The notes under the pieces were generated by a model, which was given only the letters and a program-made list of their open reading frames with translations, made no database searches and had not been told where the DNA came from. DNA of 63,008 nt, counting the filler. It is 11 parts of 11 records of this genome, joined end to end, with 100 filler letters (N's around TTAATTAATTAA, not from the genome) between each part and the next. Parts side by side here need not be neighbours in the genome. Positions count along the whole stretch, not along the records: positions 32,976 to 38,234 come from SRR7504441_10175; 10 more parts are not named here. One strand, 5' to 3'. This document shows positions 7,119 to 56,669 of this stretch, in pieces. How positions within the stretch are numbered: position 1 is the stretch's first letter; each line of letters begins with the position of its first letter. Position numbers and translations under genes: made by a program.

Positions 7119-7218
7119 NNNNNNNNNNNNNNNNNNNNNNNNNNNNNNNNNNNNNNNNNNNNTTAATTAATTAANNNNNNNNNNNNNNNNNNNNNNNNNN
7201 NNNNNNNNNNNNNNNNNN
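7119..7218. other. Artificial contig spacer (44N-TTAATTAATTAA-44N)
   Basis: Identical 100-bp structure occurs ten times. TTAATTAATTAA puts stops in all six frames, and flanking genes are cut off. Confidence 0.98.
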
Positions 7219-13789: not shown

Positions 13790-13889
13790 NNNNNNNNNNN
13801 NNNNNNNNNNNNNNNNNNNNNNNNNNNNNNNNNTTAATTAATTAANNNNNNNNNNNNNNNNNNNNNNNNNNNNNNNNNNNNNNNNNNNN
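13790..13889. other. Artificial contig spacer
   Basis: 44N-TTAATTAATTAA-44N. Confidence 0.98.
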
Positions 13890-19436: not shown

Positions 19437-19536
19437 NNNNNNNNNNNNNNNNNNNNNNNNNNNNNNNNNNNNNNNNNNNNTTAATTAATTAANNNNNNNN
19501 NNNNNNNNNNNNNNNNNNNNNNNNNNNNNNNNNNNN
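19437..19536. other. Artificial contig spacer
   Basis: 44N-TTAATTAATTAA-44N. Confidence 0.98.
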
Positions 19537-26272: not shown

Positions 26273-26372
26273 NNNNNNNNNNNNNNNNNNNNNNNNNNNN
26301 NNNNNNNNNNNNNNNNTTAATTAATTAANNNNNNNNNNNNNNNNNNNNNNNNNNNNNNNNNNNNNNNNNNNN
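26273..26372. other. Artificial contig spacer
   Basis: 44N-TTAATTAATTAA-44N. Confidence 0.98.
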
Positions 26373-32875: not shown

Positions 32876-32975
32876 NNNNNNNNNNNNNNNNNNNNNNNNN
32901 NNNNNNNNNNNNNNNNNNNTTAATTAATTAANNNNNNNNNNNNNNNNNNNNNNNNNNNNNNNNNNNNNNNNNNNN
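32876..32975. other. Artificial contig spacer
   Basis: 44N-TTAATTAATTAA-44N. Confidence 0.98.
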
Positions 32976-33120
32976 GAGGCGGGTTTTATCCGTTGGGCTG
33001 GCTTACGACTGTAGTCCAGGCCAGGGCAGATTTGCAACGGCAAAAGTACAGAGAGACGGGACGCCTCATCACCAGGCGCTGGCTCCTCACCGATTGCACT
33101 GCTCAAGGGTCACACAGGTC

Positions 33121-34169: not shown

Positions 34170-35474
34170 CTAGAACCGCACATCACGCAACTTGGGTTCG
34201 CTCAACCGCAACATCAACACACCGTCAATGTTCACGAATCCCTCGAAGGTGCCACTGTGTACCCCAAGCTCCCGGCGTGCGAACAGGTCCCTCACCAGCC
34301 TCGGCCCGGGTGGCAGGCCGACTGTAGTCCAGTTGAACCCAAGAAGCAAGTGCGTGCCACACACACTTCGGTTCCACAGCGTCACAGCCAAATCTCCGTT
34401 GGCGAGAGGACGGACCCACACGTCGTGTGCCTCGCATGAGTCCGTATTGTGGACCACCCGGCGGCCCATCTTGCCGGCTGGGTCTTGGTCCACTCCAATT
34501 ACCTCCGGCGCCAGCAGGATTGCCTTCATTTGTGGATCCAGCTGACGTAGGTCGTTACCCATCAGCAAAGGGGCCGCCATCATGCTCCACAGCGCCATCT
34601 GCGCCTTGGCCTGGTCCAGCGATAAAGCAAAGTTCCCAATTATGAGCATATCAGGATCGTTGAAATGACCCGGCCCTGACGCTTGCATCATACCATTCAA
34701 AGCTGCATTGTCGCCAACCCAGTCCACGATCCCCGTGACAGAATCCCAGCTGTCCTGAATATCATCATACATCCGCCAAATGTTGCAGGCCGCCGCCGTC
34801 ATCGCATAGTCGACAGGCTCCGACGAGTTGCCGTTGGTCCTGATGTAGTCTGGCCACGAGCACGAGTAAAGCACAGGCCTGCCTGTGCGGTTCAGAGCCG
34901 AGCCCATGTACTCATACGCCGGGTCGAGCACGGCCTTGGAGTGGATCGAGTTGCACCCATCCATCTTGAGGCTATCGATCCCCCAATCGGCGTAGGTGGC
35001 CGCGTCCTCCTGCATGTACCCGGGCAGCGTGCACTGCTCGTCTTTGCACTCGCCCGGATACTTGCCGCAGGTGGCCGTTCCCATGTCGTTGTAGGTGCCC
35101 AGTTTGAGGCCCTTGGAGTGCACATACCGGGCGAGCGCCTTCATGCCCCCAGGGAATCGGCTGGTATTGCCCACCAGCCTGCCGTCTGCCGTCCTGTCCC
35201 GGTTACTCCAGCAGTCGTCGATATTCACATACTGGTACCCAGCGGCCCGCCACTCCGGCAGGGCCAGGATGTCGGCGTGCTGCTTGACGAGACCCTCTGA
35301 GATGCAGTTGGACGGGTCGTCCGCGCACGAGGGCCCGGTGCCGGTATCGTCCGCTGTGCATCGGAAGCGCTCCCAAGTCATCCAGCCCATGGGCGGAGTG
35401 CGCGCCAGCCCGTTGTCCAGCGCCCTGACCACGTGGAGCAGCAGCACCGCAACCACCGTCACGAACGCCCGCAT
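34170..35474 (-). CDS. GH27 alpha-N-acetylgalactosaminidase / alpha-galactosidase, secreted, intronless
   Basis: LDNGLARTPPMGWMTWERF, NIDDCW, LKMDGC (nucleophile), YSCSWP, CNIWRMYDDI (acid/base), FNDPDML and AAPLLMGNDLR. Confidence 0.95.
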   Translation of the reverse strand: MRAFVTVVAVLLLHVVRALDNGLARTPPMGWMTWERFRCTADDTGTGPSCADDPSNCISEGLVKQHADILALPEWRAAGYQYVNIDDCWSNRDRTADGRLVGNTSRFPGGMKALARYVHSKGLKLGTYNDMGTATCGKYPGECKDEQCTLPGYMQEDAATYADWGIDSLKMDGCNSIHSKAVLDPAYEYMGSALNRTGRPVLYSCSWPDYIRTNGNSSEPVDYAMTAAACNIWRMYDDIQDSWDSVTGIVDWVGDNAALNGMMQASGPGHFNDPDMLIIGNFALSLDQAKAQMALWSMMAAPLLMGNDLRQLDPQMKAILLAPEVIGVDQDPAGKMGRRVVHNTDSCEAHDVWVRPLANGDLAVTLWNRSVCGTHLLLGFNWTTVGLPPGPRLVRDLFARRELGVHSGTFEGFVNIDGVLMLRLSEPKLRDVRF

Positions 35475-35753
35475 GCCGCTTCTAAGCCAGCCTTCTCTCG
35501 CCCGTGTCCGCACACCGTGAGCAAACGTGGGCGATTTGTCCGTTATAGATTCTGTTATTCCGCCCCAAGGCCTGAGGCTGCGATTCCCTGCGATTCCGTC
35601 TTATATTAATAATACTTGGTGAGGCTGCGAGCCGTGATGGATTAAATGCCCATCCTCTTCCAGTTTGTAGAATGAAGTAAGGAGGGGGGCAAGGCAGGCC
35701 CGTGTCATGTTAATCATGGGGCGCTGTTTGGCAGACGTCCTCACGCTCTATCT

Positions 35754-36689
35754 TTAATCGACCTTCTCACAAATCCCCCCGAGGTGGAGGCACCCCACCC
35801 CACCCACCCCAAACTTGGCACTGGCCAGAACCTTGCTTGGTCTACCCATCTCCAACCCTTGCGTGCACTCGAGATCGACAACCCCTTCGCCGCCAAGGGG
35901 CGAGGCGAGCTCGTGCGAAGCAAAGAGGCCGGCGAGCGCGCATGCGGCGCTCCCGGTTGCGGGGTCCTCAGAACCGTCGGGGCGAAACATCCGGCAGCGA
36001 ACCTCGAGCCGAATAGTCCGCCCTGGTCCGTCGCTTTGCGCAACCCCCTCCGAAGCATGGACGTAGTAACAAAATATCCTGGGTAGCTCGTCGGCGGCGG
36101 GGCGCCTCGAGGCGCGGGCCAACGACCCCTCGCAGCCCAAATCCACGATGCAGAACGGCATCCCGGCCGTCGCTATGACGGGGGGGTGGCGGTCCTGACG
36201 AAGCGCCCCCACGTTTAGCCCTAGCGCAGCCGCCACGGCGCTCGCGCATTGCTCGTCACGCGCCTCAAAGCGGCCCGGGGTTTTCACCCACACCTCGCTG
36301 CCCGCCACCGCCGCCTCGACATCGCCCCCGGCTGTCTCAAGCCTTAGCGAGCTGCACCCACCACGGCGGCAGAGGGCGGCAGCGGCACCAACGATGGGCA
36401 TCCCACCGAACGGTATCTCAGCTGACGGCGTAAAAATCCGTGTCCGTGATGAGGCGGCGGATCGGGTCTCCGGTATTCGTGGCTGTGAAGCCGGGGCAAC
36501 GAAGACGGTTTCTGCAAAGTTGTAGGCGGTGGCAATCTCCTGGCAACCCGCCGTATTCTCGATGTCGCCGCAAAACACCACGGCTGTCCTTGAGCCGCCG
36601 CTGCCGGCGGCGGCGCTGGCGCCCGGGAGGAAGACATCCCAGAGCTCGTGCTGGGCGCCAGGCACCGGGCCCCGGAGACGCCTGAGCAT
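35754..36689 (-). CDS. PhzF/PhzC-family isomerase/epimerase, intronless
   Basis: NFAETVFV, RIFTPSAEIPFGGMP, EDPATGSA and TQGLEMGRPS. Confidence 0.88.
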   Translation of the reverse strand: MLRRLRGPVPGAQHELWDVFLPGASAAAGSGGSRTAVVFCGDIENTAGCQEIATAYNFAETVFVAPASQPRIPETRSAASSRTRIFTPSAEIPFGGMPIVGAAAALCRRGGCSSLRLETAGGDVEAAVAGSEVWVKTPGRFEARDEQCASAVAAALGLNVGALRQDRHPPVIATAGMPFCIVDLGCEGSLARASRRPAADELPRIFCYYVHASEGVAQSDGPGRTIRLEVRCRMFRPDGSEDPATGSAACALAGLFASHELASPLGGEGVVDLECTQGLEMGRPSKVLASAKFGVGGVGCLHLGGICEKVD

Positions 36690-36880
36690 TGTGCGGGGGG
36701 CAGGGGCGGGCAGGTCGGTTTGTCCGTGCGGTTTGTCCGTTATATATTCCGTTATTCCGCCCCCAAGGCGCCCTGGCGAGCGCCCCTCTGGTGAGCCGGC
36801 TCGAGCTCGGGGTCTCGCGGTACCAGGCGGTGCCGGCGCACGAGCTGCACGAGCTCGAGGTCGGGGTCCGTCCGAGCCCG

Positions 36881-38057
36881 ATGGGCGAGCCGGGCAAATG
36901 CTCCCGGCTGTGCGAGTCCGGCTGCGGCTGGGCCAAGCGGGCGGCAGTCGGTTACATCAACGAGTTCAGGAGCGTCGACCAGGCCGACACTGACGCGCGG
37001 GTGGCGGTTGCCGGCAGCCTCACCCAGGCGATCAACACGCACCCGTGCGTGGTCTTCGTGCATCCTGGGCTGGTCTCAGACGCCTGCAACCGGGCGGTGC
37101 AAATCGCGATAGAGCGGGCTGGCCCCGAGAGCGTCAAGGCGTGGGACTGTTTCGACCAGGAGCCGCCGGTGCTCGCGGCTATTCTGGGCCTGCCGAGCGC
37201 CCGGCTGCCCGTGGTGTTCATCAGGGGGCGGCACATTGGGGGGCTCGCGCAGCTCGAGCAAAGCCTGGCCGAGCAGGAGTCGCCCTTTGATGCCCAGCCG
37301 GTCCAGCTGCCGTTGATTGACCCGAAGCAACTGACCGTTGAGCGCGAACCGCTCGCAGTGGTGCATCAGGCCGGTGGCGGCGCTTGGTGGTGCTTCCACC
37401 TGTTTGTGTACGGAAACGTGGTGCGAGCAGTCTCGTTGCTGCATGTGCTGCTCGCGCTGGCGGCGATCATATGTGCCCAGAATGACGCCTACTCGGCCGC
37501 CCAGGGACTGGCTACCGCTCTGTTCTTCGACTCTGCGCTGCTATTATGGGGCCCCTCGCCGTGGAGTCTTACGGGGCTGATCAGTACTCTGGCTGTCTGG
37601 CCTCGACGAGGTGCGGCTCTCAACGGCATGGGCCAGCCGGGACAGGGCCAGTAGTGACCATATTGCCGTATAAAGTCATCTTTCTGCTCTACGCTGTACT
37701 TCTCGGCCGGTCCCGCTAGGCTGGTGCATGGCTCACTGCGCGTGCACAGGCTAACTATGAAGACCTCGCCGTTTGGACCAAAAGGGGCATCCGAACAGTT
37801 CGATGGGACCCCGGTGCTGCGGCGGCTGCAATCTGCCAACTGATCCTCTGTGTGTATGTGCTCAGAGCGAGCTCATCACAATTGCGATCAACTCAAGCTT
37901 GCTTGCCGTGCTGAGGTTCTGACCTGGGAGCACCGCAGCGATGGTGGTATACAAGTTGGGCGAGCTGTTCCGTTACTGCTGCTGCCGATCCGCTGATGAG
38001 AACGAGTCCACGGAAACGGAGCCTTTCGGGCAAGAGCCGTGCGTTGCAAAGAGCTGA
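36881..38057 (+). CDS. Glutaredoxin-fold plus membrane-domain selenoprotein (349 aa, Sec305 encoded by TGA 37920-37922)
   Basis: Exons 36881-37610, 37646-37709, 37750-37813 and 37866-38057 (all GT-AG) join in frame. Grx motif LPVVFIRGRHIGG and several TM helices are present. The in-frame TGA lies in NSSLLAVLRF-U-PG, and a SECIS lies 53 nt after the terminal stop. Confidence 0.8.
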
Positions 38058-38110
38058 GGCGCACAGGCCACGCCAGTGGTTTGAAATGCGACGGATTGGC
38101 CGGGCCGAGT

Positions 38111-38169
38111 GGAGCATTCTTGACGTCACGCAGATAAACCGATAGGGTTCTGTGCGGCCGAAATGCTCC
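38111..38169 (+). ncRNA. Eukaryotic SECIS element, type II, UUGA-variant core
   Basis: Helix I GGAGCATT/AATGCTCC. Core TGAC (38121-4) opposite CGAA (38159-62). Helix II GTCACGCAGA/TCTGTGCGGC. Unpaired AAA (38136-8) 11 nt above the core, and apical mini-stem CC-GATA-GG. Confidence 0.85.
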
Positions 38170-38234
38170 CAAATGCTGTCTAGCCTGTATGTGATTTATC
38201 CAAGTTCCAGTGGGGGGGGGGGGGGGGGGGGGGG

Positions 38235-38334
38235 NNNNNNNNNNNNNNNNNNNNNNNNNNNNNNNNNNNNNNNNNNNNTTAATTAATTAANNNNNNNNNN
38301 NNNNNNNNNNNNNNNNNNNNNNNNNNNNNNNNNN
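38235..38334. other. Artificial contig spacer
   Basis: 44N-TTAATTAATTAA-44N, preceded by a poly-G contig end. Confidence 0.98.
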
Positions 38335-42099: not shown

Positions 42100-42199
42100 N
42101 NNNNNNNNNNNNNNNNNNNNNNNNNNNNNNNNNNNNNNNNNNNTTAATTAATTAANNNNNNNNNNNNNNNNNNNNNNNNNNNNNNNNNNNNNNNNNNNN
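42100..42199. other. Artificial contig spacer
   Basis: 44N-TTAATTAATTAA-44N. Confidence 0.98.
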
Positions 42200-48032: not shown

Positions 48033-48132
48033 NNNNNNNNNNNNNNNNNNNNNNNNNNNNNNNNNNNNNNNNNNNNTTAATTAATTAANNNNNNNNNNNN
48101 NNNNNNNNNNNNNNNNNNNNNNNNNNNNNNNN
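48033..48132. other. Artificial contig spacer
   Basis: 44N-TTAATTAATTAA-44N. Confidence 0.98.
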
Positions 48133-53460: not shown

Positions 53461-53560
53461 NNNNNNNNNNNNNNNNNNNNNNNNNNNNNNNNNNNNNNNN
53501 NNNNTTAATTAATTAANNNNNNNNNNNNNNNNNNNNNNNNNNNNNNNNNNNNNNNNNNNN
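53461..53560. other. Artificial contig spacer
   Basis: 44N-TTAATTAATTAA-44N. Confidence 0.98.
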
Positions 53561-56569: not shown

Positions 56570-56669
56570 NNNNNNNNNNNNNNNNNNNNNNNNNNNNNNN
56601 NNNNNNNNNNNNNTTAATTAATTAANNNNNNNNNNNNNNNNNNNNNNNNNNNNNNNNNNNNNNNNNNNN
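56570..56669. other. Artificial contig spacer
   Basis: 44N-TTAATTAATTAA-44N. Confidence 0.98.

Follow-up and report, generated by a model that had tools for sequence, protein, structure and literature searches.

We describe a four-exon gene, in a 63,008-base stretch of DNA (the window, meaning here the whole stretch that was analysed), which in our judgement specifies a membrane selenoprotein some 358 residues long, with the UGA codon at 37920 read as selenocysteine (Sec); we put the probability of this reading at about 0.87. The hidden selenoprotein gene appears genuine and most likely adds a member to the family of predicted membrane selenoproteins called MSP. The original prediction for this locus had ended the protein at a further in-frame UGA, at 38055; new here is that this codon is probably a second Sec. 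The closest database relative of the encoded protein is P0001 (315 aa), and the DNA of P0001 was available as L001, a 1376-nt contig of the JGI metagenome collection.

Gene structure, the first UGA and the SECIS-type hairpin

The gene lies on the plus strand. Exon 1 (36881–37610) begins with a start codon at 36881, the Met of which aligned with the M-x-x-PG-KCSR of L001; it matches P0001 with an E-value of 9e-59, and RNA contigs covering 36826–37096, 37281–37464 and 37331–37563 were found over its region. It is followed by intron 1 (37611–37645, 35 nt), exon 2 (37646–37709, 64 nt), intron 2 (37710–37749, 40 nt), exon 3 (37750–37813, 64 nt), intron 3 (37814–37865, 52 nt) and exon 4, each intron running from GT to AG. 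With exon 4 counted through the second UGA (37866–38057), the exons sum to 1050 nt or 350 codons; if both UGA codons are read as Sec, the coding part of exon 4 is 37866–38084, with the stop at 38082–38084. Exon 1 encodes a Cys-rich N-terminal helix (KCSRLCESGC), a glutaredoxin-fold domain (about 37037–37270, with SDAC at the active-site position) and the first DUF4395-like membrane helices, and exon 4 the last membrane helix, both UGA codons, an amphipathic helix, a CCC motif, an acidic linker and the tail GAQATPVV.

The splicing was found directly in RNA. Record 5 of the metatranscriptome run X6, a contig of 151 nt, joins 37708 to 37749 at intron 2, and its loose ends are the end of exon 1, at intron 1, and the start of exon 4 (AGCGAGCTC), at intron 3. 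When rebuilt from its reported pieces, this record is contained letter for letter in the spliced model, all three junctions included, and it covers exons 2 and 3. P0001 and its DNA L001 are colinear with the model through all junctions, exon 2 included, and carry no introns. The four-exon, three-intron gene model is real, and the three GT-AG introns and the continuous frame that had been proposed from the letters alone proved correct in their coordinates, with X6 record 5 and the intron-less L001 in agreement. Another RNA contig, X6 record 6, spans 37965–38115, and the transcript therefore extends to the start of the hairpin described below. A contig from a polyA library (X4 record 3, 37747–38013) retains intron 3 and has the TGA unchanged; it differs from the window at 37851 and 37910, indicating a related strain, and represents either unspliced RNA or DNA carry-over.

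The first in-frame TGA, at 37920–37922, is preceded by ...IAINSSLLAVLRF and corresponds to residue 305. From this point the frame of the window reads RF-TGA-PGSTAAMVVYKLGELFRYCCCR...VAKS-TGA-GAQATPVV-TGA, and that of L001 reads RF-TGA-PGSTAAMAVYKILELFRFCCCRGCC...NTGG-TGA-GSQAVPPSV-TAG, while the database protein P0001 ends in ...LLTVLRF, right before the point at which the window has its TGA. Global alignment of the window protein with that of L001 gave 156 identical residues among 297 aligned (53%) before the first TGA, and 19 among 23 (83%) after it. For eleven of these 19 identical residues the two genes use different codons, among them AGC and TCA for Ser, and nucleotide identity in the post-UGA stretch is 70%. 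The two genes differ at 44% of their nucleotides and both keep the UGA. The higher identity past the UGA, combined with differing codons, argues for a translated and constrained peptide after 37920; UGA 37920 is, judging by this pattern of conservation, translated, and conservation and RNA structure together point indirectly to its recoding as selenocysteine. Among the 18 long open reading frames (ORFs) in the window, 13 end in TGA, 4 in TAG and 1 in TAA, and TGA is therefore not generally reassigned to sense.

A family profile was built from window exon 1, P0001 and P0002 and searched against 1.84 billion cluster representatives, of which 165 matched at E<=1e-3. In 94 of the best 150 relatives the sequence stops right at the motif NSxxLxxxR[FLWV], at RF in 87 of them, and the other 56 are fragments or different glutaredoxin proteins; 37 of 41 further relatives end exactly at the same motif. 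In total, 131 of the 191 examined relatives end there, and none of the 191 has residues after the motif. It had been foreseen that gene callers would stop this protein at RF, and the database relatives bear this out. The codon after RF in the truncated relatives other than the window gene and L001 would likewise be UGA. Taken at face value, the same endings would favour a real stop at 37920, with the protein finishing at RF and the remainder untranslated, as would the frequency of TGA as a stop in this window. Against such a stop, identity is higher past the UGA than before it, largely through synonymous codon changes, the frame is open beyond the UGA in both genes, and canonical DUF4395 proteins run through this very point with F-C-x-G-C. 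We therefore regard a real stop as extremely improbable.

Family members carry the source names 'glutaredoxin' and 'glutaredoxin-related protein' and, in one case, 'magnesium-transporting ATPase (P-type)'; this last label, on P0078, looks like a misannotation. Judged by eye, the family spans both AT-rich, amoeba-like compositions (P0027, P0051) and GC-rich ones (the P0003 group). A metagenome scan with alignment A1 found one locus, and scans with the clade alignments found no further relatives in viral contigs or genome contigs. In the ESM Atlas, P0027 had no usable match, and P0001 gave a lead only, with a score of 0.75, to a diatom 'nucleoredoxin-like' cluster in which a thioredoxin-type domain is combined with DUF4395.

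A hairpin of the selenocysteine insertion sequence (SECIS) type is located in the 3′ untranslated region (UTR) at 38111–38169, on the plus strand, and was identified by folding and by a SECISearch-style scan. Its lower helix has 8 bp (38111–38118 with 38162–38169), the core consists of UUGA at 38120–38123 opposite GA at 38160–38161, and the upper helix is paired at 9 of 12 positions, below an apical part with an unpaired AAA (38136–38138) and a small apical stem. The folding energy is -25.2 kcal/mol and the spacing is NTGA-12 nt-AA-22 nt-GA. As set out in the passages of PMC2375036 that describe it, the primary SECISearch pattern comprises NTGA, 10–13 nt, AA, 15–39 nt and GA, with an energy below -12.6 kcal/mol. 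Our own implementation of the published pattern, with helix requirements added, was run on both strands of the window, and 38111–38169 was the sole match in 63 kb; the background was a mean of 0.5 matches per window in 20 mononucleotide shuffles. The same scan of L001 gave one match, at 1262, at the corresponding place in its 3′ UTR, where 1252–1310 folds into a like structure at -20.7 kcal/mol and has the canonical AUGA. The distance from UGA to AAA is 12 nt in both hairpins. The window hairpin thus resembles eukaryotic SECIS elements in its quartet, its 12 and 22 nt spacing, its unpaired AAA, its two helices and its position in the 3′ UTR, and the energies of both hairpins lie under the published limits. 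The hairpin would help to recode UGA 37920 to selenocysteine.

The original prediction of a selenoprotein with an in-frame UGA is upheld by the coding-type conservation past the UGA in L001 and by the SECIS-type hairpins in both 3′ UTRs; the homologue whose DNA could be inspected at this position, L001, has TGA there and stays conserved beyond it. An ordinary amino acid could also be inserted at UGA 37920, by a near-cognate or suppressor tRNA and with no involvement of selenium: the post-UGA conservation speaks for translation and not for the identity of the residue, and the Rfam models recognised no SECIS. On the other side, each of the two 3′ UTRs carries a hairpin with the same core spacing, and the window has no other; the position of the UGA is that of a conserved Cys in a CxxC motif, which is the classical Sec/Cys pairing; and the codon has been retained in two genes that are 44% different in nucleotides. 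We consider such read-through very improbable.

Domains, fold and predicted topology

At E<=0.01, the Pfam Glutaredoxin model (PF00462) matched 39 of 52 family members, the best with 9.4e-13. The L001 protein was modelled with AlphaFold (mean pLDDT 82.3, pTM 0.73); the model contains a thioredoxin-type domain, for which the top Foldseek matches in the PDB are glutaredoxins, headed by human Grx2 (rmsd 2.4 Å across about 108 columns, TM 0.73–0.81 of the target). The glutaredoxin fold that had been proposed for the N-terminal part is thus supported, and the SDAC and the LPVVFIRGRHIGG motif are present in the window protein as described. At the glutaredoxin active site the family consensus reads C-G-F-C, each of the two Cys columns being at >=90%, while the clade of the window has SxxC. 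A Cys-rich motif near the N-terminus, KCSR(L/I)C(E/S)SGC, is conserved in both genes (window 36896–36931, L001 113–151). A CCC motif lies 20 residues past the first Sec (window 37980–37988, L001 1101–1109) and is extended to CCCRGCC in L001.

Beyond the glutaredoxin domain, the L001 model has helices at residues 189–211, 215–232, 241–253, 261–280 and 297–312, and a tail that is disordered from residue 338. Hydrophobic 19-residue windows cover residues 189–213, 224–250 and 256–279, in addition to the helix at 297–312. The protein is therefore predicted, on the basis of these helices and hydrophobic windows, to be an integral membrane protein.

More distant matches to the profile (P0119, P0131, P0138, P0147 and others) combine Glutaredoxin with DUF4395, and the DUF4395 domains of these canonical proteins end in ...F-C-L-G-C... 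or ...Y-C-V-A-C.... Two of them, P0119 and P0138, carry glutaredoxin, DUF4395 and an SLAC1/TehA-type anion channel; this three-domain fusion may hint at the role of DUF4395. When the family, including the two read-through tails, was compared with the Grx-DUF4395 proteins by hhalign, a match of 99.5% probability (E 4.4e-23) was obtained over 253 columns, from the glutaredoxin domain to the F-C-x-G motif. The alignment ends by placing LRF-C(U)-PG on LDF-C-LG, and in this column match the Sec coincides with the first Cys in the F-C-x-G-C motif of DUF4395. A profile of three canonical DUF4395 proteins also matches the window model (E 7e-9, residues 107–243). In the window's motif, U-P-G-S, Sec stands for the first Cys and Ser for the second.

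The family and the Grx-DUF4395 fusions accordingly share their domain order and profile-profile homology over these 253 columns. They differ in that the fusions have Cys-x-x-Cys where this family has Sec-Pro-Gly-Ser, match the Pfam DUF4395 model and have no SECIS requirement; some of the fusions carry a channel domain, whereas this family has none.

A number of results weigh against the reading of this gene as a membrane selenoprotein. The hairpin at 38111–38169 had been called a textbook SECIS, which holds for the SECISearch pattern, the spacing and the energy but not for all of its features: the base preceding the UGA of the core is U, which is unusual, in place of G or of the A found in L001, the lower internal loop is very small, and the Rfam SECIS families, which are covariance models, gave no match at E<=10 in window 37600–38234 or in L001. 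An 81-nt stretch folds with a z-score of -2.06, and 7 of 200 shuffles fold equally well. TGA being the commonest terminator here, its presence in both genes is by itself weak evidence, and the codon after RF is known for two genes (window and L001) and not for the 131 truncated relatives. A tRNA scan found no tRNA genes in the 63-kb window, and no Rfam family reached its gathering score anywhere in it; L001 likewise matched no other Rfam family. On the protein side, Pfam at E<=1 returned nothing for window exon 1, the last exon or the full L001 protein. The resemblance to DUF4395, with F-U-P-G on F-C-x-G, was recovered by hhalign and yet not by the Pfam DUF4395 model (PF14340), which matched none of the 52 family members at E<=0.01. 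The glutaredoxin active site is SDAC in the window and SAEC in L001, so that the usual nucleophilic Cys is missing. Lastly, the relay, topology and substrate set out at the end of this report are ones that we infer.

The second UGA and the relation to MSP

The second UGA, at 38055–38057 on the plus strand, corresponds to residue 350 and is a candidate Sec; the codon is UGA in both genes, the comparison comprising two sequences only. After it, the frame continues with GAQAT-PVV (window) or GSQAVPPSV (L001), and then reaches a stop in both. Five of eight residues in this tail are identical, two of them by different codons, with one gap, and the two tails have the motif G-x-Q-A-x-P...V in common; beyond the final stops no similarity is visible by eye. 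The context of the codon is GG-U-G in L001 and KS-U-G in the window, 9–10 residues from the C-terminus. The stop at 38055 and the length of 349 residues proposed originally probably do not stand, as both genes have UGA there followed by a conserved tail, and the reading frame probably runs on to 38084. On the evidence of these two sequences, UGA 38055 is probably a second Sec; the protein would then have 358 residues, with Sec at U305 and U350.

Thioredoxin reductase (GCUG), SelK and SelS carry Sec in a short, flexible tail at the C-terminus. The likeness to these proteins is confined to the position of Sec in a low-confidence, Gly/Ser-rich tail, and homology is not claimed.

It is somewhat unlikely that the protein has one Sec only, with UGA 38055 a true stop and the similarity over nine codons due to chance or to conservation of the UTR. 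Such a reading is favoured by the shortness of the tail and the two sequences behind it, by the use of TGA as the usual stop in the window, and by the closeness of UGA 38055 to the SECIS core, only about 65 nt downstream. It has to contend with the UGA at this position in both genes, with the 8–9 further codons open in each before another stop, with a shared tail motif that shows third-position differences and is followed by nothing similar, by eye, after the stops, and with the GG-U-G of L001, which resembles the Sec-bearing C-terminal tails of other selenoproteins. Two Sec residues are also what has been published for MSP (PMC2375036).

Lobanov et al. (2007, PMC2375036) described MSP, from Ostreococcus, Chlamydomonas, Volvox and Dictyostelium, as a selenoprotein that is predicted to be a membrane protein and has two Sec residues; Jiang et al. 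(2020, PMC7539508) count it among the families that occur almost exclusively as Sec forms. By the traits given in the relevant passages of these sources, which are the sole basis of the comparison, we think it probable that the present family is MSP. Both are predicted protist membrane proteins with eukaryotic, SECIS-dependent Sec. Compared with the two Sec residues of MSP, the protein found here has one firm and one probable. As for the near-exclusive Sec form, none of the 191 relatives has a residue replacing the UGA, with DNA seen from two genes. The two descriptions differ in that those passages on MSP mention neither a glutaredoxin nor a DUF4395 domain.

An alternative is an uncatalogued selenoprotein family apart from MSP, being the Sec form of a Grx-DUF4395 fusion. 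In keeping with this, 'membrane selenoprotein' does not occur as a name among the database matches from the cluster look-up and the alignment searches, and a full-text search on DUF4395, judged by titles and abstracts, returned no paper that links the domain to MSP or to any selenoprotein. A separate family nevertheless seems unlikely, as the available description of MSP fits, namely a membrane protein with two Sec residues in green algae and Dictyostelium (PMC2375036) that is almost exclusively Sec-containing (PMC7539508), as here, and as the present family includes, by eye, amoeba-like AT-rich and GC-rich members. More doubtful is the fuller form of this idea, in which an undescribed selenoprotein family is the Sec form of a DUF4395 membrane module, with the fused thioredoxin-fold domain servicing a selenol/thiol centre at the membrane interface. 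If this were true, it would give the first functional reading of DUF4395, the second Sec on its flexible tail would act as a mobile shuttle, and the SLAC1/TehA-type fusions of the Cys relatives would point to the handling of a redox-active anion.

Genomic setting, proposed mechanism and meaning for the family

The window consists of eleven contigs, each of roughly 3–7 kb, which are chained by spacers made up of 44 N, TTAATTAATTAA and 44 N (7119–7218, 13790–13889, 19437–19536, 26273–26372, 32876–32975, 38235–38334, 42100–42199, 48033–48132, 53461–53560 and 56570–56669). As it represents joined contigs and not one molecule, gene neighbourhood across the spacers is meaningless. Long ORFs elsewhere in the window encode protein kinase, P-type ATPase, alpha-galactosidase, DEP, KH and Rieske domain proteins, and on the strength of these Pfam matches of ten long ORFs the source is a eukaryote. 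Parts of the stretch occur in marine metagenomes and metatranscriptomes from 18 studies, in small shares every time. The source organism is a marine microbial eukaryote and the gene is nuclear.

The selenoprotein gene is on the contig at 32976–38234, which terminates in a run of about 30 G (38203–38234) just 3′ of the SECIS-type hairpin. This run is probably a sequencing or assembly artefact, and the true 3′ end of the gene therefore lies outside the window. On the minus strand of the same contig, a PhzF-family gene (35757–36690, Pfam PhzC-PhzF, E 9e-27) is divergent to the selenoprotein gene, and an alpha-galactosidase gene is found at 34170–35600. Because the likely PhzF start is about 190 nt from the start of the selenoprotein gene, the two genes may share a bidirectional promoter.

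From N- to C-terminus, the proposed protein would comprise the Cys-rich helical N-terminus, the glutaredoxin-fold domain, a membrane-helix bundle of diverged DUF4395 type, F-U-P-G, the amphipathic helix with the CCC motif, and an acidic tail. Four hydrophobic segments and the positive loops PRRG and RF-U...K..R (positive-inside rule) would place the Sec where the last membrane helix reaches the cytosol, so that it shares a side of the membrane with the glutaredoxin domain. At this place it could serve as a redox centre at the membrane interface, the counterpart of the DUF4395 CxxC. In most members, the fused CGFC glutaredoxin would re-reduce the Sec with glutathione; in the clade of the window, where the first Cys of the glutaredoxin site has become Ser, this part may fall to the KCSRxCxSGC cluster at the N-terminus or to the Sec-bearing C-terminal tail. 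The CCC motif after the amphipathic helix is a possible lipidation or metal site, and the fusion of some Cys relatives to a channel hints that the substrate may be an anion. The diatom lead from the ESM Atlas would fit with DUF4395 working with a thioredoxin-fold partner. The function of the protein, like this relay from glutaredoxin to Sec, is thus one that we infer.

For the family, these results mean that its members are systematically cut short in public protein sets, with 131 of 191 ending one residue before the likely catalytic Sec. The truncated entries therefore lack the active site, the amphipathic helix, the poly-Cys motif and probably the second Sec. The hairpin adds a non-canonical SECIS, with U before the quartet, of a kind overlooked by the Rfam models. 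If the family is MSP, an uncharacterised selenoprotein would gain a reading in terms of domains, a glutaredoxin and a DUF4395-type membrane domain in whose CxxC the Sec takes the first Cys position, which was not found in the passages and full-text searches covered here; this reading would offer testable ideas for both MSP and DUF4395.

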